Shown piece by piece: positions 6,904-21,267 of a stretch of DNA of 31,138 bases. Position 1 is the first letter of the stretch, and the number at the start of each line of letters is the position of its first letter. The notes beneath the pieces were generated by a model. It saw nothing but the letters and a program-made list of their open reading frames with translations, made no database searches and was not told where the DNA came from. The translations under genes and the position numbers were made by a program. The DNA lies in contig CAZPHJ010000003.1 of assembly GCA_964586755.1 (NCBI GenBank), positions 1 to 31,138 on the forward strand, written 5' to 3'. Source of the stretch: an uncultured Candidatus Saccharibacteria bacterium (lineage in GTDB: Bacteria > Patescibacteriota > Minisyncoccia > Phycocordibacterales > UBA9973).

Positions 6904-7046
6904 TTTTACTAAGGAAAACTAAGCTCTCGAAAACCTCGCGATTACGCGAGGCAAGAGCAACGCAAAAAGAAGGCCATCGATGCCTTCTTTTTGCGTTAAA
7001 TATAGAAATAGACAAAAAAAGTAAAGCCTCCAGTGCTGGAGGCTTT
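6894..7046. terminator. Four consecutive hairpins between convergent genes
   Basis: Stems at 6894-6928 (14 bp), 6934-6951 (7 bp), 6959-6997 (16 bp) and 7023-7046 (10 bp). The last two have A/T runs on both sides (bidirectional terminator type). Confidence 0.75.
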
Positions 7047-7072: not shown

Positions 7073-8005
7073 TTATTCTTTAACGATCCGTATTTTTTCC
7101 TGTATCCACGGTATGCCGGTTTCAGTTTTTACAACCAAGATATATATTCCGGTGACTGAAACAGCATCACGAACTTTGTCCATGTCTGATACATCCATAA
7201 AGTGATTAGCATAGATCAGCTTCCCTTCCAAGTTGTAAATCGAGACGTATCCCGAAAACTTACCGATTGGATCCATCACACCGGAAGTTACCCCGCCGTG
7301 GGTGCGACCTTTGTAGACTGCAGACGAATCCATTTTTTTACTGTTCCGTATATACACACGAAAACTGTAGGGAAAATTATTTACACCGACCGGAATTACC
7401 ATGGAACGTACTGTGGTTTGTACAGTTGTACCCAAGATTGGCAAAATCGTATCAATCACCGCTGGATGTGATTTTACCGGATTCTTAAAAGTAGTATCAC
7501 CATAAGAAACCACGACGGTCACCACGGCATCGTCGTATCCGGACATAAAAACCCCATCAAAATAGGCATTCATTGTGTCAGACTTATGGTTTTTAACAAC
7601 CTGCGTCGGATTGATAAAATACGGAGATAACCGTATTCCAGTATCATTTACCGCAAACGCAATGTCGATAATAGTACCGGTTGAATCAATCTCCATCACT
7701 GTGTCCGTAATGAAGTAAACATGCGGATACGGCACAGAAGTGCGTAATGTATCCACCCGGGTCGCTATTGGGCCGATAGCCACAAATGTGTCCCTCAACC
7801 CCGCCGTAGTAGCAGTATGGGTAATGTCATCATACATACGGATGTTCCGCACTATGGTATTCCCCGGTGTCATACCAGCCATAACGCTGGTCACCCTCAT
7901 GCCCATCTGGGCGTTGGTTTGACTCATGCTCACAGTGAGCTGAGCGTTAACTGAAAATGCGCCAATCAATATGGCCGCGACGAAGAGAATAGATACTTTT
8001 TTCAT
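7073..8005 (-). CDS. Secreted protein with T9SS type-A sorting-domain-like C-terminus
   Basis: Signal peptide MKKVSILFVAAILIGAFSVNA-Q. C-terminus VSIYNLEGKLIY...TGIYILVVKTETG...KIRIVKE matches the I-Y-x-L-x-G-K / G-x-Y-I-L / K-I CTD pattern, but YPNP is absent. Confidence 0.7.
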   Translation of the reverse strand: MKKVSILFVAAILIGAFSVNAQLTVSMSQTNAQMGMRVTSVMAGMTPGNTIVRNIRMYDDITHTATTAGLRDTFVAIGPIATRVDTLRTSVPYPHVYFITDTVMEIDSTGTIIDIAFAVNDTGIRLSPYFINPTQVVKNHKSDTMNAYFDGVFMSGYDDAVVTVVVSYGDTTFKNPVKSHPAVIDTILPILGTTVQTTVRSMVIPVGVNNFPYSFRVYIRNSKKMDSSAVYKGRTHGGVTSGVMDPIGKFSGYVSIYNLEGKLIYANHFMDVSDMDKVRDAVSVTGIYILVVKTETGIPWIQEKIRIVKE

Positions 8006-8130: not shown

Positions 8131-9885
8131 TTAGATATGAAACTGTTTTTTCCAGAATGATGCATACGCACCATCTTTTTCGAGCAAGTCGCTGTGACTT
8201 CCCTGCTCTTCTACTGTTCCGTTTTTGAGAACAATAATTTCATCAAGATTAGAAACTGTGGTAAGCCGGTGAGCAATTACAATAAGTGTTTTGTCTTTCA
8301 TTGCCTTCAACACTCGTTCTATTGCTTCTTCTGTTTCAGAATCAAGCGCAGATGTTGGTTCATCAAGGATTAGGATTGGTGCATCTTTAAGAAAAGCTGC
8401 CGCAATCGCCAAACGTTGGCGCTCACCACCAGAGAGCTTAACTCCTCGTTCACCCACCTTTGTATCATATCCATGTTCTAGTCGATTAATAATAAAATCA
8501 TGACATGAGGCTTTTTTTGCAGCAGAGACAATTTCTTCTTCTCTTGCATTTGGTTTACCGAGAGCGATAATCTCACGAACAGTTCGAAATGGGAACGAAG
8601 GATCTTGTTGTACATAACTAATTAAGCTACGAATGTAATCTCGCGAAAGCTCACTTATTGAAGCTCCGCCGATAGTTATTTTTCCTTGACCATTTTCCAA
8701 TTCAAACTGGCGAAGCAGAAGTCTCGTAATTGTAGTCTTACCACTTCCGGTATGACCAACAAAACCATATCTTTTTCCAGAATGGAGATTAAAGCTAACG
8801 TTTGTGAGTACTGGCAATTCTCTTTTTGGATACCTGAACGATACATCTTGAAACAAAATCCCATGATCAACAATACTCACTGTTGAATCAAAGTGCTGTG
8901 TTCTTCTAACCTCTGGTTCCTTTTCAGAAATAATTTCTGCCATTTCGTGTGCGTCTGCAAATGATGATCGAAGCTTAAATACACTTCTCCCAAACATCCA
9001 CATATATCCCGAAACCGATGCTACAAAGAACTGAACTAGGACAACTGTTCCGACCGACACGACACCTGCCAAAGCTTGAGTAATAATGTAATACATCAAA
9101 ACAACTTCAAGCAAAACACTGAGTCCAGACTGTATAGCCCATTGACGATTACCATGCCACCATGAACGAAAACGAAATGAATGTTCACTCGCCGTCGTTT
9201 CAGCAAAATGAGCGTATTCCAAGTCTTCCCGAACATATGAATGTATCATGTGAGCACTTCCGATAATGTCACTGAGGTGTCCAGTCGTGTGCGTCTCAGC
9301 ATCTGCTGAAGCAAGATCGTGCGGTGTCCGAATGTCTGATAATTTCCAAGTAGTCAGGCCAAAGAGAACTGCCCATCCGAGCAAAATAAATCCAACAACC
9401 GGAACTGTAGAAAGTGCTACGAAAAAAACACCTGTAATCGTAATAACCACGCGAATCATTGTGAACGCAATCTCGTCAAACACAGACTCTGAGGCAATCG
9501 CAAATCTTCTGGATTTTGCACCAATAGAACCAGCAAAATTGTCTAAGAAAAAACTCGTGTCAAAACGTACAAGACGTTTGAGTGCGTAATCTCTCAAGTA
9601 CTTTATGATATGTGACTCAGTTTTTGTTAAACACCAGTCACCGAGGCGATCAATAAACCAACAAACGACCCCAATAATTGGTATAAGGGCAAATAACACC
9701 AACGGATTGTTTTTTTCCGTGAAGCTATCAATGATCCTTCGCCATATTGTCACCTTATACACGTCTCTGAGAAATGTGGTTATACCATATGACACGAGCG
9801 TGCCAACAACATACCAGCGATACTGGTAAAATGCGTGTTTCCAATGACGCCACACCGGAGCGAACAACTGTTTTTTCTTTTCCAT
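8131..9885 (-). CDS. ABC exporter, fused permease and ATPase (MsbA/multidrug half-transporter type)
   Basis: N-terminal multi-TM domain, Walker A GHTGSGKT, signature LSGGERQR, Walker B LILDEPTSALD, H-loop IAHRL. Confidence 0.96.
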   Translation of the reverse strand: MEKKKQLFAPVWRHWKHAFYQYRWYVVGTLVSYGITTFLRDVYKVTIWRRIIDSFTEKNNPLVLFALIPIIGVVCWFIDRLGDWCLTKTESHIIKYLRDYALKRLVRFDTSFFLDNFAGSIGAKSRRFAIASESVFDEIAFTMIRVVITITGVFFVALSTVPVVGFILLGWAVLFGLTTWKLSDIRTPHDLASADAETHTTGHLSDIIGSAHMIHSYVREDLEYAHFAETTASEHSFRFRSWWHGNRQWAIQSGLSVLLEVVLMYYIITQALAGVVSVGTVVLVQFFVASVSGYMWMFGRSVFKLRSSFADAHEMAEIISEKEPEVRRTQHFDSTVSIVDHGILFQDVSFRYPKRELPVLTNVSFNLHSGKRYGFVGHTGSGKTTITRLLLRQFELENGQGKITIGGASISELSRDYIRSLISYVQQDPSFPFRTVREIIALGKPNAREEEIVSAAKKASCHDFIINRLEHGYDTKVGERGVKLSGGERQRLAIAAAFLKDAPILILDEPTSALDSETEEAIERVLKAMKDKTLIVIAHRLTTVSNLDEIIVLKNGTVEEQGSHSDLLEKDGAYASFWKKQFHI

Positions 9886-9930
9886 TTTTTGAGTTTTTTT
9901 GGAGTGAGAAATTATTTTTATTGAGTTTTT

Positions 9931-10016
9931 AAAGAAAAAAGCATCCTATCATTCACAGATGACAGGATGTTTGAAACATTCACGTTGTTAGATTAAACAC
10001 TTACAACATCCTGCCA
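9931..10016 (-). promoter_or_regulatory. Transcription attenuator (mutually exclusive antiterminator and terminator)
   Basis: In the mRNA, A (10016-10005) UGGCAGGAUGUU pairs 12/12 with B (9971-9960) AACAUCCUGUCA, including one G-U. B also pairs with C (9951-9942) UGAUAGGAUG, which is followed by C-UUUUUU-C-UUU. Confidence 0.82.
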
Positions 10017-10118
10017 TAATTGGCATGTATTCCCCATGAGAGTAGAGCGCACAGCAAAAGAGCTGCCGATCCACGGCTTCTGGGAATAGGTATTAAGATG
10101 TTTGTATGTGTTTTTCAT
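9993..10118 (-). CDS. 41-aa leader peptide of the ABC exporter attenuator
   Basis: Manual translation MKNTYKHLNTYSQKPWIGSSFAVRSTLMGNTCQLWQDVVSV*. It starts 9 nt below a -10 element and its last codons overlap antiterminator strand A. Below the ORF-track cutoff. Confidence 0.68.
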   Translation of the reverse strand: MKNTYKHLNTYSQKPWIGSSFAVRSTLMGNTCQLWQDVVSV

Positions 10119-10127
10119 ACTAAATTC

Positions 10128-10155
10128 ACATTAGCATGTAAGAAATATTTGTCAA
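10128..10155 (-). promoter_or_regulatory. Sigma70 promoter of the leader/ABC unit
   Basis: TTGACA-N16 (ending TGc)-TAATGT on the minus strand. Confidence 0.7.
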
Positions 10156-10164
10156 TATAAACAA

Positions 10165-10191
10165 AAAAAACCACCCGACGGGTGGTTTTTT
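10165..10191 (-). terminator. Terminator of rpsF-ssb-rpsR
   Basis: aaaaaaccaccc-gac-gggtggtttttt, just after the rpsR stop. Confidence 0.88.
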
Positions 10192-10197
10192 CAGGAA

Positions 10198-11028: not shown

Positions 11029-11526
11029 TTATGCTGTTACTTCTTTGTCGTCAACTAATGCCTCAATCTCTCGGTCGATTTGCTCCTTAGACATTTCAGG
11101 TTGACCTTCCTTTTCTTTACCTTCTTCCTTTCCTCCTGGACGTCGGCGAACTCCAAAGCCTTTCTTACTTGCAATTGTGTTCTCACGAACAGTCTTCACG
11201 AGCAAGTGGCGAACGAGATCAGTACGGAGACGAAGCGCAGCTTCGAGTCCTTCTACTTCACCACTGTCAAGTTCGAACTTAATCCATCCAAAGTATCCTT
11301 CGTTGAAGCGTTCGATCTTGTTGTTGATCGTACGTTCCATGGTGTATGCAAGCGTAATCAACTTTGGAAATTCTTCCGAAATTGCGATTGCTCCCATATC
11401 TAGGATAGCATTTTTAAGATTACCATAGACCTCAGGGAGCTTTTCCTCTGTGATTTCAGGTACGAGAAGAAACCCGACTTCGTATACTCCGTTGTCAGAT
11501 CCTCCAGTAGTCATCATTTCTTCCAT
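11029..11526 (-). CDS. rpsF: 30S ribosomal protein S6 with an extended C-terminal tail
   Basis: YEVGFLL..., LAYTMER, GYFGWIKF, LVRHLLVK; located upstream of ssb. Confidence 0.92.
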   Translation of the reverse strand: MEEMMTTGGSDNGVYEVGFLLVPEITEEKLPEVYGNLKNAILDMGAIAISEEFPKLITLAYTMERTINNKIERFNEGYFGWIKFELDSGEVEGLEAALRLRTDLVRHLLVKTVRENTIASKKGFGVRRRPGGKEEGKEKEGQPEMSKEQIDREIEALVDDKEVTA

Positions 11527-12865: not shown

Positions 12866-14308
12866 TTATTCCTTACGCATAAAGAGCGGAGTTTCTGGCT
12901 TTTTATTGTCTTTAATAAGCGCTTTTAATTTTGCGTTTGTTTCCGGCATGATTGGATTGAGCATTCTCGCAATAGTATACAAATCAAGAACCATTTCCGA
13001 AATGAGCTCCTTTCCTTTTACTTCATCCACTTTTACAACTTTGAAAGGTTCTGTTCTTTGGATTTTTTGGTCGAGTACTTGGATTTTTTCCCAAATGAGG
13101 GCTGTGGCCTTTTGAATATCAAATAATTCAAGCGTATCAAAAAACTCTTGGGGAATAGAACTCTCCGGCAACGGAGGGCACTCGGGGAGATATTTCTCGG
13201 ATAGTGTAAGTATTCGCGAAGCAAGATTTCCCAGCCCATTTGCAAGATGTGCATTGTATGATGCCTTAAATCTCTCCATCGTAAATGGACTATCTTCAAA
13301 AGAAGAGATTTCCTTTGCCAAGAAAAATCGCATTGCATCTGTCCCATACTCTGCAACCACATCCTTTGGGTCGACTCCATTACCGAGAGTCTTCGACATA
13401 CGTACACCGCCATCAGCAGTAATAAAGCCGTTGACTACGATTTGATGAGAATTGGGTACATTTGCGGCCATGAGCATTGCCTGCCACATTGCAGACTGAA
13501 ATCGAGTATTGTCTTTTCCACAATACTGGGTAGGAGCTCCATTTTTCCAATACGTTTCAAAATTACCGCCTTCGTTTGGCCAATCAAGGGTAGAAATATA
13601 ATTGGTTAAAGCATCAAACCAAACATACATCACATGCGCTTCATCCCCTGGCACTGGAATCCCCCACGACATCTTGGTCTTCAAACGAGATATGGAAAAG
13701 TCTTCAAGTCCACGCGCAACAAATGCTTTAATTTCGTTGTAGCGAAAATCTGGTACAACAAAATTTGGATTGGCCTCATAAAAAGCAGTGAGCTTCTCCG
13801 TAAATGCAGAATACTTAAAAAAATAATTTTCCTCCTCAATAATTTCTAGTGCTCGTCCTGGATGAACTGGGCATTCCCCGCTTACCAAATCAGAATCTGT
13901 TTTTACTTCCTCACAACCAACGCAATACTTTGCTTGGTAATTTTTTTTGTAAATATACCCATTCTGGTCACATCGTTTCCAAAATTCTTGAGCCGAAGCC
14001 TCGTGTCTTGCGTCAGTCGTTCGAGCGTAATGAAGAATACTTTCATCCAAGCCAAAAATTTTTACGGATTCAGTAAATCGGGCAAAGCTCTCATCCACAA
14101 ACTCTTGTGGAGTCTTTCCTAAAGACTGCGCTTTTTCATATATTTTCATTCCATGCTCGTCCGTTCCAGTATTAAAAAAAACGTCAAAACCGTTCAGTTT
14201 TTTATATCGAGCAATAATGTCTGCGCGTACAAACTCAAGCGCGTGACCCATGTGAAGGTCCGCATTTACATATGGAAGTGTGGTTGTAATATAAAATGGC
14301 TTTGACAT
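12866..14308 (-). CDS. metG: Methionyl-tRNA synthetase (short form, no C-terminal tRNA-binding domain)
   Basis: YITTTLPYVNADLHMGH, TGTDEHG, YVWFDAL, RMSKT (KMSKS equivalent), knuckle CxxC...CxxH. Confidence 0.98.
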   Translation of the reverse strand: MSKPFYITTTLPYVNADLHMGHALEFVRADIIARYKKLNGFDVFFNTGTDEHGMKIYEKAQSLGKTPQEFVDESFARFTESVKIFGLDESILHYARTTDARHEASAQEFWKRCDQNGYIYKKNYQAKYCVGCEEVKTDSDLVSGECPVHPGRALEIIEEENYFFKYSAFTEKLTAFYEANPNFVVPDFRYNEIKAFVARGLEDFSISRLKTKMSWGIPVPGDEAHVMYVWFDALTNYISTLDWPNEGGNFETYWKNGAPTQYCGKDNTRFQSAMWQAMLMAANVPNSHQIVVNGFITADGGVRMSKTLGNGVDPKDVVAEYGTDAMRFFLAKEISSFEDSPFTMERFKASYNAHLANGLGNLASRILTLSEKYLPECPPLPESSIPQEFFDTLELFDIQKATALIWEKIQVLDQKIQRTEPFKVVKVDEVKGKELISEMVLDLYTIARMLNPIMPETNAKLKALIKDNKKPETPLFMRKE

Positions 14309-14713: not shown

Positions 14714-14758
14714 ACTTTATAAACTTGATGAACTTTACAAACTTTATGAACTAATACT
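14714..14758. repeat. 9-mer tandem arm upstream of the four-helix-bundle gene (inverted relative to 14318-14362)
   Basis: actttataa-acttgatga-actttacaa-actttatga-actaatact; overlaps the AI-2E gene stop. Confidence 0.9.
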
Positions 14759-15757
14759 AGCTTTTTTCTTTTTATCGAGATCATCAAAAAATTCCATGAC
14801 ACATACAGCCACGGGAATAGAAAGAATAACCCCCCAGAACCCAGCGAGCTCAATACCTACGAGCAAGGATAGGATTACCAAGAGAGATGAGATTCCAACT
14901 ACTTTTTTTACAATGAGTGGCTGAATCAGATTTGCTTCAAATTGCTGAATAACCACATAGAGACCAGCAACTTCGAGTGCTGTGGTTGTTCCACCACTTG
15001 AATACCCAGAGGCGATTGCCGGTATTGCCGCCAAAATAATACCGAATGGTATAAGTTCCATAATCGCAGCCGCTACAGCAAGTAGAAGTGCATATTGTAC
15101 ATTAAACAAAAGAAGACCTAGATAAATAAATACCCCCACCAAAAATCCAAGCAGGAGCTGCCCTTGAAACCAGAGGCCGATCTTGTGTTCAGTTCTTTTC
15201 CATAGTCCTACTACATACTCCTCACTACGATCAGGGGTAATAATGCGAAGAAAATTTTCAACTCCGTTTTTGTTGATTGAAAGATAAAAAGAAATAACCG
15301 CAAGCAAGACTACGTTGACAAGTCCGCCGAATATAAAGCTTGCTGCAGCAATAGCTTGAGGTCCTGTGTTTGTTGCCAAAGATTCGAACTTTCCAATAAT
15401 ATCCACAAACGGAACACCTTCCGAAGCATTCGTACCCGTAGTTGGTAAATAGGTGTGAATAAAATTGAAAAACTGAGCCATCTGTCCGAGGAATACTGGA
15501 ACAAAAAAATACAAAAACAATCCAAACAAAGCTATAACACAAAAATAAATAATAACTACAGAAAAACTCCTTCCGAGCTTACGCGCCACCAGTTTCTTTA
15601 CGCCGAATTCAACGAATGACGCAATTACAATCGATGTTAGAAAAACGTAGACCAAATCACGAAGATAGTACAGCCCAAAAATAAGCGCCAGGAGTGCAAT
15701 GGTGCTCCAAATAGTCTTTTGGCTTATCGTAATAACTTTCTCTCCTTGGGGGTTCAT
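14744..15757 (-). CDS. AI-2E family (PerM/UPF0118) transporter
   Basis: Multi-TM protein with WFQGQLLL, ELIPFG..LAAIPA, QQFEANLIQP, GFWGVILSIPVA. Confidence 0.93.
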   Translation of the reverse strand: MNPQGEKVITISQKTIWSTIALLALIFGLYYLRDLVYVFLTSIVIASFVEFGVKKLVARKLGRSFSVVIIYFCVIALFGLFLYFFVPVFLGQMAQFFNFIHTYLPTTGTNASEGVPFVDIIGKFESLATNTGPQAIAAASFIFGGLVNVVLLAVISFYLSINKNGVENFLRIITPDRSEEYVVGLWKRTEHKIGLWFQGQLLLGFLVGVFIYLGLLLFNVQYALLLAVAAAIMELIPFGIILAAIPAIASGYSSGGTTTALEVAGLYVVIQQFEANLIQPLIVKKVVGISSLLVILSLLVGIELAGFWGVILSIPVAVCVMEFFDDLDKKKKASISS

Positions 15758-17857: not shown

Positions 17858-19207
17858 TTACAACTGCTCTTTGATTTTTGAAACCAAATCAGAAATTTTT
17901 ACGCGCTCTTGCACTCCTGTATCACGGTCGCGGATGGTGACTGTATCGAGATGATCTGGATTTTCGCCGAGTGTGTCAAAGTCGATCACGATACACCATG
18001 GTGTACCGATTTCATCTTGGCGACGGTAACGCTTTCCAATGTTTCCGTTGTCATCAAATGCGACGCGTCCAAATTCCTTTTTGAGCATCATGTATACCTC
18101 TCGTGCTTTTTCTACGAGTTCAGGCTTATTTTTGAGAAGTGGAGACACGGCACAAAGTACTGGTGCGATTGAAGGCTTGAGTTTGAGGTATGCGCGAGTG
18201 TCGTCCCCCATCTGATCTTCCGTGTATGCTTCCATAAGCGTAAAGAGTACGGCTCGGTCCACACCACCAGAACATTCGATATCCCATGGAATGCATCGCT
18301 CTTTGGTCTCCTCATCATAATACGAAAGGTCTACACCTGAGTATTCAGAGTGGCGTCGCAAATCCCAATCTCCACGATGGTGGATTCCCCACGCCTCTTT
18401 CCATCCAACACCTGGCATATTGTATTCAATATCCCATGCATCTTTTGCATAGTGAGCACGCTCATCTGCTTCATGCGCACGCAAGCGCAAACTTTCCTTT
18501 TTAAATCCGAGTCCGTAGTACCAATCAAGTGCGGCATTTTTCCAAAACTCAAATGCTTCCGCGCCAGTTTTTTCATCTGGCTTAATGTAATACTGAATTT
18601 CCATCTGCTCGAATTCGCGCTGACGAAATAGAAAATCGCGGGGCGTGATTTCGTTGCGAAAAGCTTTTCCAATCTGACCAACACCAAATGGGAGCTTCGG
18701 ATGCATCGAGTCGAGAATATTTTTAAAATTCACATGTACACCTTGGGTGATTTCTCCACGGAGATATACCTGTTGTGCAGTATCCTCTGAAGCGCCAAGT
18801 TTTGTTTCTACAAGAAGATTGAAAACGCGAGGCGTTGACCATTCCACTTTTTCCTTCGGGTGTGTCGCTTCATGATCAGAAATCGCTTCTGGCTGATCGG
18901 CACGCACACGGCCGTTACAGATTTTACATTCCACAAGCGGATCAGTAAAAAGCTCGGTATGACCTGAAGCTTCCCAGACTTTTGCCGGCATCAAGATTCC
19001 CGCACTGATTGGATAGATATCTTCCCTGTTTTTGATGAATGTCTCCCAAAAGTATTGTTTGATATTGTGGCGAAGTTCCACGCCAAGTGGACCGTAATCA
19101 AAGATTCCCGAAAGTCCTCCGTAGATTTCTGATCCCTGGAATATAAAGCCACGTCGCTTACAAAGCGACTGAATCTTTTCCATTACATTTTCCTGTTTAT
19201 TTTCCAT
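17858..19207 (-). CDS. glyQS: Glycyl-tRNA synthetase, alpha2 type
   Basis: DYGPLG, YLRGEIT, GKAFRNEITP, FRQREFEQME, anticodon domain GNIGKRYRRQDEIGTP. Confidence 0.97.
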   Translation of the reverse strand: MENKQENVMEKIQSLCKRRGFIFQGSEIYGGLSGIFDYGPLGVELRHNIKQYFWETFIKNREDIYPISAGILMPAKVWEASGHTELFTDPLVECKICNGRVRADQPEAISDHEATHPKEKVEWSTPRVFNLLVETKLGASEDTAQQVYLRGEITQGVHVNFKNILDSMHPKLPFGVGQIGKAFRNEITPRDFLFRQREFEQMEIQYYIKPDEKTGAEAFEFWKNAALDWYYGLGFKKESLRLRAHEADERAHYAKDAWDIEYNMPGVGWKEAWGIHHRGDWDLRRHSEYSGVDLSYYDEETKERCIPWDIECSGGVDRAVLFTLMEAYTEDQMGDDTRAYLKLKPSIAPVLCAVSPLLKNKPELVEKAREVYMMLKKEFGRVAFDDNGNIGKRYRRQDEIGTPWCIVIDFDTLGENPDHLDTVTIRDRDTGVQERVKISDLVSKIKEQL

Positions 19208-19309: not shown

Positions 19310-19345
19310 ACTTTACAAACTTTATAAAATTCATAATTTTCAACT
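19310..19345. repeat. Solo degenerate 9-mer arm at the stop of the 640-aa gene
   Basis: actttacaa-actttataa-aattcataa-ttttcaact. Confidence 0.65.
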
Positions 19346-21267
19346 TATTGAGTCACTGTTTGTCCATTTGGTGGGAACCCTGGCTCGTTACGAAGTTGGG
19401 TTGATGTTGCTCCTCGGCTCGTAGTGAGCATTACACCGGTAAATGTATCTTTTGCCGATACGGTCGTGTCTAAAACAAGTTTTGGAACACTACCCACTTG
19501 AGTTTCTGACGGATTGAGGCGTACCTGGAACGACACCTTACGAGGAGATCCGCTCGTACCAGCACCAGCAGGCACGGTTCCGATTTTCCATCGAATCGTA
19601 CTTGTTGTTGCGTCGTATTCTACAGACTCTCCAGATGGAGAAATCGTTCCAACCCAATCTACATATGTCGGCAAAAGAGCAGTAGCAAAACCGTCAGTGA
19701 GGGCATTTGCCGAATTGGTTACAGTCCAAGTAACAGTATACGTCGTAGGTTGATTGGCTTTCGGTGGAATTGGTCCAGTGTTTGAAAATGGTCCAGTATT
19801 ATATGAGGCATCCGGAGAAAAACCAAGATCAGAATTTATTACTGCAGTCTTTTCTTCGAAATCAGCAACCTCACTTACAGCTCCCCCTTGGTCTGGTTGT
19901 TTGCCTTTTATACTTACCGATACTTTTACAGAAGGTTTAGAAATTGTTCCCCCAGTAGACCACAGCGGCAAAACTTTGAATGAAAATTGTAAAATCCCCT
20001 GGTCTGATGGTTCAATCGAAGCAAGTTCGGCAACAGATGTCTTGTTCCAAGTTATCGTTTTGTCCAAAGAATTATAAAAACCTTTTTGCGCATCGACTGA
20101 TTTTCCATCGAGCGCATTCCCTGACAAATGAACAATCACTGAAGCGTCCGTTACGCGAGTTGGTAGATTGTTTGTGTAGTTTACAGTGACCGAAACATTT
20201 CCAGCACTACCGACTGGGGTTGGATCAGTCGTCGAGCTATTAATAGAAAGACGCGCAGCAAGAAATGGCTTAACGAGTGATACTGTTTGAAGCAGTGAGT
20301 TGTACGTCACACCAATTTTGGAATTATCAGTCGTACTTACTGCACCTGTGTACACATGAAAAGCTCTATCTTCCCCGTCCTGTCCATACACAGTACCAGT
20401 AATCACTACGTCGCGCTCCGCTCCAGGTGCAAAATCACCAAGGTTCCATACATTATTCGAAGCAGTTGCTTCTGGGACTGATTTTTCAAAATTAAATCCA
20501 GTTGGATATTCGACATGGAGCAGCATTCCAGAAAGCGTATTCTTACTATTTGAAACCGTCTTGACAGTAAAGGTCAATTTTTGATTTGGGGTTATACTTT
20601 TTGGACCCTCAACAGAAAGTGATACTGGTGCGGAATTGATAGTCACCACAAACGAAGATTTTTTTACAAAAATTGCGTTTGAGCCGCGGAGGCGATACTG
20701 CAATGTGAAGTCAACACTCTTTGTGCTCCCTTGTTCGCCGAACAACGTTACAAAAAGACTCTTGGTGGTATTTCCACCAGCAGGAATCGTGCCTAGTGAA
20801 TTCAATTCACGAACGTGTCCGACACTGTTGCTGGCAGTTCCACCATTATCATACTCGACAAAAAGATCGGCGAGTTCAAGCGCACTCGCGTTCTTGTTTG
20901 AAACTTCAACCTGCAAAGGAAGTTCCTCACCGCCAGCGGTAAATGAATTACCAAGAACATTAATTTCAATATTGGCATTCGAAACAGTATTTCCTCCTGT
21001 AAAAAACATTACTGTAGCAAAAAGTGCAGCAAGCACTGCAAATCCAAGTGAAAAATAAAAAAACTTCTTAAAAAAAGAGTGGTGAATTTGTGTTTTTTCT
21101 GGTTTTGATTTTGACATATCTGCTTCCCAGTCTTTCTTAACCGGTGTCGGATTCAAATGAAGACTGTCGATGCGTCGCATCACGCGTCCCGCAAGATCAC
21201 GCCGATACAGGCGTGCATTTACGTCATCTAAGTTATGCGGCTCGTTTGGATTTCCCTGGTCTGACAT
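19345..21267 (-). CDS. Single-pass membrane protein with several Ig/DUF11-like beta-sandwich domains
   Basis: Cytoplasmic N-terminus, one TM (FFYFSLGFAVLAALFATVMFF), repeated V.N....L / W.LG...PG / YT..W.V.N / ..W.IG motifs. Confidence 0.85.
   Translation of the reverse strand: MSDQGNPNEPHNLDDVNARLYRRDLAGRVMRRIDSLHLNPTPVKKDWEADMSKSKPEKTQIHHSFFKKFFYFSLGFAVLAALFATVMFFTGGNTVSNANIEINVLGNSFTAGGEELPLQVEVSNKNASALELADLFVEYDNGGTASNSVGHVRELNSLGTIPAGGNTTKSLFVTLFGEQGSTKSVDFTLQYRLRGSNAIFVKKSSFVVTINSAPVSLSVEGPKSITPNQKLTFTVKTVSNSKNTLSGMLLHVEYPTGFNFEKSVPEATASNNVWNLGDFAPGAERDVVITGTVYGQDGEDRAFHVYTGAVSTTDNSKIGVTYNSLLQTVSLVKPFLAARLSINSSTTDPTPVGSAGNVSVTVNYTNNLPTRVTDASVIVHLSGNALDGKSVDAQKGFYNSLDKTITWNKTSVAELASIEPSDQGILQFSFKVLPLWSTGGTISKPSVKVSVSIKGKQPDQGGAVSEVADFEEKTAVINSDLGFSPDASYNTGPFSNTGPIPPKANQPTTYTVTWTVTNSANALTDGFATALLPTYVDWVGTISPSGESVEYDATTSTIRWKIGTVPAGAGTSGSPRKVSFQVRLNPSETQVGSVPKLVLDTTVSAKDTFTGVMLTTSRGATSTQLRNEPGFPPNGQTVTQ

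Follow-up and report, generated by a model that had tools for sequence, protein, structure and literature searches.

In the bmrBCD operon of Bacillus subtilis, lincomycin, chloramphenicol and erythromycin act as inducers via translation of the leader bmrB (yheJ), and the terminator, antiterminator and anti-antiterminator of this system span nucleotides 60–162 of the bmrB open reading frame (ORF) (Reilman et al., 2014, PMC4191407). In Escherichia coli, upstream ORFs (uORFs) that sense several antibiotic classes are known (PMC12121999). Here, we describe a leader in a stretch of 31,138 nucleotides (the window; contig CAZPHJ010000003.1 of assembly GCA_964586755.1) from an uncultured bacterium of the candidate phyla radiation (CPR)/Patescibacteria type. 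A preliminary description of this DNA, made from the sequence alone, had listed a promoter, a near-leaderless ORF of 41 amino acids and three RNA segments (A, B and C) in front of a gene for an ATP-binding cassette (ABC) exporter, and all of these elements are present. They are located on the minus strand, and all coordinates given below refer to the window.

We consider it probable that this leader is a ribosome-mediated (leader-peptide) transcription attenuator that controls the exporter gene, and that a ribosome stalled upstream would give read-through. The sequences document the elements themselves, their conservation, the covariation of two helices, the selection acting on the ORF and an exclusive association with ABC exporter genes, whereas we infer termination and read-through, control by the ribosome and an inducer that slows translation.

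Comparison with described leader systems

The leader shares with bmrB a short translated ORF (53 amino acids in bmrB, 41 here) in front of a type-IV ABC exporter, alternative terminator, antiterminator and anti-antiterminator structures, the lack of regulatory codon runs and the presumed use of the ribosome as sensor, a role that was shown experimentally for bmrB. However, the two systems differ in several respects. The structures of bmrB are located inside the coding region, whereas here strands B and C follow the stop codon, which itself lies in the antiterminator. bmrB has a 5′-untranslated region and a GTG start codon, whereas the leader described here appears to be leaderless. bmrCD form a heterodimer, but here a single half-transporter gene is found, and the hosts are a Firmicute and a CPR bacterium, respectively. 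Thus, the likeness to bmrB-bmrCD that had been proposed for this locus holds for the mechanism but, when judged by the published description of bmrB, does not extend to homology.

With the E. coli trp leader (trpL), the element has in common the four-segment logic (1:2, 2:3, 3:4 pairing) and a terminator downstream of the leader ORF. In both cases the stop codon adjoins segment 2, so that a ribosome at the stop would block 2:3 pairing and allow the 3:4 terminator. In contrast to trpL, there are no tandem regulatory codons, the regulated gene encodes an exporter and not a biosynthetic operon, and the leader ORF is about three times longer. Moreover, segment 1 pairing is supported here in a close clade only and there is no Rfam match.

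Functional parallels are provided by the msrD leader MsrDL (PMC10314930), by ermC and cat-86 (in PMC4191407) and by the E. coli uORF toiL (PMC12121999), in which a ribosome on a uORF senses translation inhibition and an RNA switch turns on a protective gene. The likeness to these systems is functional only, since their peptides are mostly much shorter, several carry defined drug-dependent arrest motifs and several act on translation or Rho and not on an intrinsic terminator. The leaderless polycysteine short ORFs of mycobacteria (bioRxiv 10.1101/834739) are also regulatory, are translated from mRNAs that start directly at the AUG or adjacent to it and control a downstream operon. However, they sense cysteine via runs of Cys codons, which are lacking here, and they belong to another phylum with other genes and other RNA structures. 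The leader thus probably works like bmrB-bmrCD and is built like trpL but, as far as sequence comparison can tell, is a member of neither family.

Organization of the leader

The promoter (10155..10128) involves a −35 box TTGACA (10155..10150), a spacer of 16 nt and an extended −10 box TG-n-TAATGT (10136..10128). A scan for consensus promoters did not call it because TAATGT fits at just three of the six positions. The leader ORF (10118..9993) comprises 41 codons followed by TAA (9995..9993) and its predicted product is MKNTYKHLNTYSQKPWIGSSFAVRSTLMGNTCQLWQDVVSV. Since the ATG at 10118 is only 9 nt 3′ of the −10 box, the leader mRNA is probably leaderless or nearly so.

The 5′ strand of the antiterminator (strand A, AUGGCAGGAUGUU, 10017..10005) is encoded by the last base of codon 34 and by the codons for W35-Q36-D37-V38, which agrees with the earlier assignment of A to the last leader codons. 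Strand B (9971..9959) is common to two alternative folds, since its pairing with A gives the antiterminator and its pairing with C the terminator. The segment 9952..9935 comprises strand C (9952..9942), a single C (9941) and a tract of six U residues (9940..9935). For the A:B helix we counted 13 bp with one G.U pair, and for the B:C stem 11 bp with one G.U pair, followed by the U6 tract. The dual pairing of B had been recognized before, but the two helices had been given as 12 and 10 bp long. The intrinsic terminator stem (9969..9942) was also called by a terminator scan, together with its T-tract. When the full alignment was folded with RNAalifold, we obtained the antiterminator plus an additional upper helix with an apical loop (10002..9974), in which AAG.GUUUA (10002..9994) pairs with UGAAU.UUU (9982..9974). 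This upper helix holds the leader stop codon UAA (9995..9993). The stop codon is therefore located within the antiterminator, as previously suggested, but inside a conserved helix and not in an open loop.

Two additional elements involve strand A. Segment 1 (10113..10096, codons 2–8) is a candidate anti-antiterminator strand, which pairs with 10011..9995, that is with the 3′ part of A and the next bases. The local hairpin UGCCA-AUUA-UGGCA (10025..10012), which had already been noticed, was confirmed and shares bases with the 5′ part of A; in the absence of a ribosome, it is predicted to sequester the 5′ half of this strand. The exporter gene (9885..8131) starts at 9885 and encodes 584 amino acids. 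Masking of its start by the B:C hairpin was rejected, since the hairpin ends some 55 nt upstream of the ATG.

Conservation with orthologous exporters

The layout was found in 19 further distinct sequences, of which 12 precede orthologous exporters and seven were retrieved with a covariance model. Together with the window, the family thus counts 20 members. The exporter orthologues share 52–69% identity with the window exporter and come from metagenome assemblies. All orthologues with enough upstream sequence have a gap of about 320 nt before the exporter gene, which contains the promoter, an ATG 8–11 nt past the −10 box, an ORF of 38–52 codons and strands A, B and C. Across the 13 orthologous leaders (window included), TTGAC, TG and TA…T of the promoter are invariant, and most of the seven divergent members show the same layout. 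The distance of 8–11 nt between −10 box and start codon is kept in nearly all family members.

These orthologous leaders occupy at least four genomic contexts. In several cases rpsR lies upstream, whereas L013 has a PHO4 transporter gene in this position, L015 a divergent msrB and L016 yet another gene. Since the upstream neighbors differ among the loci, the leader appears to travel with the exporter and not with the locus. The paralogous exporters L002–L006 (36–42% identity) do not carry such a leader.

Covariation of the alternative helices

The preliminary description had proposed a fold and covariation check across homologous leaders. In an alignment of 18 distinct sequences (A3), both helices covary, each at nine pairs. 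For the antiterminator, 93.4% of the cells were paired and 9 of its 21 pairs were changed on both sides (25 cells), and within the upper helix three of eight pairs covaried. When the partner strand was slid as a control, at most 48% of the cells were paired. For the terminator, 90.7% of the cells were paired and changes on both sides were seen at 9 of 14 pairs, and the corresponding slid-partner controls reached at most 58%. The terminator figures are conservative, because L020 is misaligned in the C arm of A3 and was scored as broken. Shuffled alignments did not reach the observed values for either helix (0/500 each). Since the sequences are related, these shuffle counts are not to be read as probabilities; the slid-partner controls are not affected in this way, nor is the count of distinct pair types.

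Positions 4–12 of strand B pair with both A and C, and changes in B are matched in both partners. At column 64 of A3, for instance, the pairs G-C, A-U and U-A are seen with A and the pairs C-G, U-A, A-U and G-C with C. As strand B is common to both structures, terminator and antiterminator are mutually exclusive, and the matched changes in A and C are the signature that is expected of two mutually exclusive functional helices, as read from the alignment.

The leader ORF and its peptide

All 20 members keep the frame of the leader ATG open; its 838 codons contain no stop, as compared with 57 and 38 stops in the other two frames. Among seven close orthologues, the ratio of non-synonymous to synonymous substitution rates (dN/dS) was 0.33–0.42, codons 11–33, which are located outside the conserved helices, included. 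Synonymous differences were observed at the conserved residues F21, A22, R24, G29 and T31. These sequence data indicate that the leader ORF is real and under purifying selection. The stop codon is within the antiterminator in all 20 sequences and occupies the same alignment columns in most of them; in L013, L040 and L043 it comes 8–9 nt earlier. Although the frame ends earlier in these three members, the nucleotide sequence of strand A is kept, and the last part of the ORF therefore appears to be constrained as RNA and not as peptide.

Purifying selection (dN/dS about 0.3–0.4) would also be seen if the product of the small ORF had a function of its own, for instance as a bacteriocin-like substrate or as a partner of the pump, and if the hairpins were a mere inter-cistronic terminator. 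The ORF always adjoins an ABC exporter and it has been annotated by gene callers in several contigs, which would fit this explanation. However, between subfamilies the peptides can hardly be aligned whereas the RNA helices are conserved, and the C-terminal residues are set by strand A, as is evident from the three members with early stops. The exporter lacks a Peptidase_C39 domain, no double-glycine motif was seen in the peptides and a search of Pfam with the leader peptides matched no family. Moreover, a plain terminator needs no conserved covarying alternative helix. We therefore regard a functional peptide as very unlikely. The narrower idea of a bacteriocin or a precursor of a ribosomally synthesized and post-translationally modified peptide with a dedicated exporter was rejected because of the lacking C39 domain and double-glycine motif.

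The peptide is moderately conserved within the orthologues, and across subfamilies alignment is barely possible. An arrest peptide containing KPWIG had been proposed before, but this motif is kept only in the three closest relatives. What is conserved more widely are G19-x-F21-A22-x-R24 and G29. A loose stretch (R/D)-x-(Y/F/L)-(S/G)-(V/L)-(V/M/C) recurs about 12–20 residues before the C-terminus, but its significance could not be shown. A hairpin in the middle of the ORF (10075..10040, GGCAGC-UCUUUU-GCUGUGC) overlaps the codons of the conserved Gly-x-Phe-Ala and recurs at the equivalent position in relatives with other sequences (e.g., CCACUC…GAGUGG in L021); it could be a pause hairpin for RNA polymerase or a by-product of the codons.

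In many members, codons for Asn and Thr are found repeatedly at positions 3–10 of the ORF. Together with the trpL-like four-segment layout and the reliance of CPR bacteria on imported amino acids (PMC11665869), this is reminiscent of a classical biosynthetic-type attenuator that responds to amino acid (charged-tRNA) starvation, for example of Asn or Thr. In contrast to such attenuators, runs of identical regulatory codons are lacking in all members, which makes classical starvation sensing unlikely, and the regulated gene is always an exporter and never a gene for biosynthesis or uptake. The need for an unstructured leaderless start would explain the A/T-rich K/N/T codons near the 5′ end equally well. 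Among the amino acid leaders of Rfam, only Phe_leader gave any match, one on the opposite strand (27.5 bits) and one over the rpsR terminator (20.7 bits), both below its threshold of 55 bits. All in all, there is very little to recommend starvation sensing. A sensor of polyproline translation by elongation factor P, an idea prompted by the efp gene that adjoins the exporter in relatives, was rejected because the peptide has no PP motifs, and the vicinity of efp looks like plain synteny for this reason.

Folding energies and proposed mode of action

The minimum-free-energy fold of the whole leader has −58.7 kcal/mol (z = −4.6), and none of 200 shuffled sequences was as stable. For the isolated antiterminator we calculated −18.3 kcal/mol (z = −3.4) and for the isolated terminator −14.9 kcal/mol (z = −4.6). 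All 13 orthologous leaders can form both structures, with calculated energies of −10.5 to −19.7 kcal/mol for the terminator and −18.7 to −28.2 kcal/mol for the antiterminator, the latter being the more stable one in each case. The minimum-free-energy fold calculated without a ribosome contains the terminator in 12 of the 13, and in the window leader it includes the segment 1:A pairing together with the terminator. Among eight close orthologues, 119 of 128 cells of the segment 1:A pairing are paired, and L028 shows two double changes from C-G to U-A. Hairpins like UGCCA-AUUA-UGGCA, of the type GCC(A)…(U)GGC or CCGG…CCGG, were found by eye in most orthologues.

From these structures the following sequence of events is predicted. 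Transcription would start a few bases 5′ of the AUG of the 41-codon ORF, the last codons of which form strand A, with the stop codon in the helix just past A. An unhindered ribosome with the stop codon in its A-site would protect about 10010..9983, a region that extends from the 3′ half of A through the 5′ strand of the upper helix into the loop. This would leave B to pair with C, and the transcript would end at about 9935, 5′ of the exporter gene. If the ribosome were slowed or arrested before its P-site had moved past about codon 29 (position 10034), A would be free to pair with the emerging B. As A:B is stronger than the terminator, termination would be blocked and the exporter gene transcribed. 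If there were no translation at all, segment 1 (in the close clade) and the UGCCA/UGGCA hairpin would tie up A and lead to termination. The position of the ribosome can decide between the folds because the leader ORF always ends inside the antiterminator. The attenuator logic that had been proposed for this locus gains support from the comparison of the family members, in which strand B is shared, all 20 sequences retain an open ORF, the stop codon is in the antiterminator and an exporter follows.

The same RNA anatomy could also report translation competence. In this case, translation would melt the segment 1:A pairing, the ribosome would soon leave, A:B would form and the exporter would be switched on, whereas in the untranslated leader the anti-antiterminator and the terminator would form and keep it off. 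Such a scheme would be in line with the higher stability of the antiterminator in 13 of 13 orthologues and with the untranslated minimum-free-energy fold, which has segment 1:A plus terminator. However, the stop codon is inside the antiterminator in all 20 sequences, a placement that lets a terminating ribosome block A:B, and the segment 1:A pairing is not conserved beyond the close clade. Moreover, the experimentally studied systems of the same geometry (trpL, bmrB) work in the opposite way, and we consider a report of translation competence to be unlikely.

There are several observations that weigh against a ribosome-mediated attenuator as we propose it. Because the antiterminator outweighs the terminator in stability, the off state hinges on kinetics. 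In five more distant orthologues only about half of the cells of the segment 1:A pairing are paired; an anti-antiterminator common to the whole family was rejected, since this pairing is kept in the close clade only. The U-tracts of L018, L020 and L044 are short or interrupted, and termination may be weak in these members for this reason. Across the family, the peptides have neither codon runs nor a universally conserved motif that points to a signal. No RNA runs carrying the leader were listed, and the one metatranscriptome examined, from wastewater (X20), yielded only one exact stretch of the ABC gene and parts of leaders from relatives but nothing on termination or read-through. In this dataset, a 144-nt contig is identical to a part of the ABC gene (9249..9392), and contigs of 151 nt match the leader partly (9907..9940 and 9994..10028), one of which continues into an L029-like leader. 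These contigs hint that such leaders are transcribed, but DNA carry-over is possible and they are uninformative on termination.

Distribution of the leader RNA

The covariance model, which spans A through the terminator, found one copy in the genome of the window, further copies in the same family (G475) and in other families of the order (G481, G592, G537, G557, G551). In the order-level scan, 7 of 151 sampled genomes matched, a number that includes the own genome and one false positive. A second model (R2) retrieved copies from G195 and G124, which belong to two further orders of the class, but no match in 150 sampled genomes, mostly from other classes of the phylum. Each real match has an ORF of 33–46 codons that ends within the antiterminator, a terminator and then a gene for an ABC exporter with fused transmembrane domain (TMD) and nucleotide-binding domain (NBD). 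A direct comparison, made for the exporter of L034, gave about 21% identity to the window exporter. The sole match away from an ABC exporter (L041) is a tandem repeat in an apparently coding region and was discarded as a false positive. Reverse-strand matches, which were hairpin echoes, and the metagenome pattern-scan matches L023 and L027, which are located within a repeat-protein gene, were also discarded, as were duplicates.

On the protein level, no exporter orthologue at E ≤ 1e-140 was found in 400 sampled genomes of the class, and a protein-pattern scan of genome contigs with the exporter returned only unrelated ABC proteins of 30–43% identity.

When the whole window was searched against Rfam 15, there were no matches at the gathering threshold and only sub-threshold chance matches at relaxed E-values. 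The search results also bear on the possibility that the ORF is incidental and the element a riboswitch or attenuator that binds a ligand or a protein. Here, the expression platform of terminator and antiterminator would be just as typical and the further hairpins inside the ORF could be accommodated, but no Rfam family reaches its threshold and the region from segment 1 to A is variable in length and sequence, without a conserved aptamer-like core. An incidental ORF is also difficult to reconcile with a frame that is open in all 20 members and has its start and stop at fixed places. We consequently assign a very low probability to this alternative. Taken together, the matches indicate that the leader RNA is an uncatalogued family that, on present sequence evidence, occurs in several families and orders of one CPR class.

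The exporter and its neighboring genes

The exporter carries the Pfam domains ABC_membrane and ABC_tran, plus a weak SMC_N match over the NBD, and it is thus a fused TMD-NBD half-transporter, which presumably works as a homodimer. Walker A, Q-loop, the LSGGE signature, Walker B-Glu and H-loop are all intact in the translation, and Pfam detected no Peptidase_C39 domain. MsbA-related and multidrug-type models of NCBIfam match the protein, all below their cut-offs, and the closest solved structures are ABCB1, ABCB19 and Sav1866.

No terminator was found between the exporter stop (8131) and the next gene (8005..7073, minus strand), and the next terminator is located at 7046..7023. This gene encodes a protein of 310 amino acids with a weak match to a C-terminal sorting domain of the type IX secretion system. 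In relatives, efp directly follows the exporter gene 3′; gene 8005..7073 looks like an insertion and may be co-transcribed with the exporter. One relative (L015) carries a second ABC exporter gene of 585 amino acids about 2 kb downstream, on the strand opposite to the leader-controlled one (L015:6356–6755, L015:2294–2419).

The upstream genes were identified as rpsR, ssb and rpsF (ribosomal protein S6). The terminator of this rpsF-ssb-rpsR cluster (10192..10164, minus strand) was called by the terminator scan with a 13-bp stem and a T8 tract and it shields the leader promoter against upstream read-through. The S6 protein (11029..11526, minus strand) has 165 amino acids, and only residues 15–112 match the 95-position S6 model. 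Further upstream, a methionine-tRNA ligase (12866..14308, minus strand) of 480 amino acids matches only the first ~477 positions of the 648-position MetRS model and appears to lack the C-terminal part.

Leaderless initiation in the host genome

The host assembly comprises 0.69 Mb in 81 contigs, and the genomes of relatives range from 0.5 to 1.3 Mb. Exporter orthologues are labeled, for instance, as Candidatus Pacebacteria or Patescibacteria group, and the DNA runs containing the window are wastewater metagenomes. When we inspected the long ORFs of the genome, the motif TGnTAnnnT was found 6–9 nt before the ATG in 48 of 414 cases, as compared with about one at other spacings. A Shine-Dalgarno peak was not seen across the long ORFs, and a GGAG-like word is located upstream of only 5 of the 28 window genes. 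This accumulation of extended −10 boxes 6–9 nt before the ATG and the lack of a Shine-Dalgarno peak suggest that leaderless initiation is common in this host. Examples of apparently leaderless starts in the window are 17858..19207, 19345..21267 and 14744..15757 (all on the minus strand). The start context of the leader ORF fits that of ordinary leaderless genes of this genome, as far as spacing and sequence tell.

Discussion

The genes that follow the leader all encode ABC exporters of the multidrug type. By analogy with bmrB-bmrCD, the inducer may be an agent that slows the ribosome, an assignment to which we give about an even chance. Ribosome-targeting compounds that are exported by the pump, as suggested by the bmrCD example, would be our favored guess. 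With the P-site at codon 29, just far enough 5′ for A to be free, the residues G19-x-F-A-x-R…G29 would be located in the upper exit tunnel, which is compatible with a peptide-assisted pause but no proof of it. A more specific scenario is that the conserved G-x-F-A-x-R-(Y/S)-(S/T)-x-x-G acts as a sequence-specific nascent-peptide sensor, which halts the unusual ribosome of CPR bacteria when a certain small molecule of the host or the community is sensed, with this molecule then being exported by the pump. We consider this scenario rather doubtful but, if it holds true, Patescibacteria would have their first known native switch for inducible gene expression.

Gene regulation in Patescibacteria/CPR bacteria has been called virtually unknown and inducible systems have been requested (2024 perspective, PMC11665869). 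Our literature search for attenuators and leader peptides in Patescibacteria retrieved no described case. Since the proposed mechanism is textbook, the advance is a new family in a new host lineage and not a new principle. The putative cis-acting switch is compact, with promoter, leaderless mini-ORF and a terminator/antiterminator pair in about 220 nt. It is a portable element and a possible genetic tool for reporter systems. The leader also supports leaderless initiation as a normal mode in the host genome. More generally, these data suggest that reduced CPR genomes keep ribosome-coupled attenuation and that slowed translation may be worth sensing for an epibiont living among antibiotic producers.

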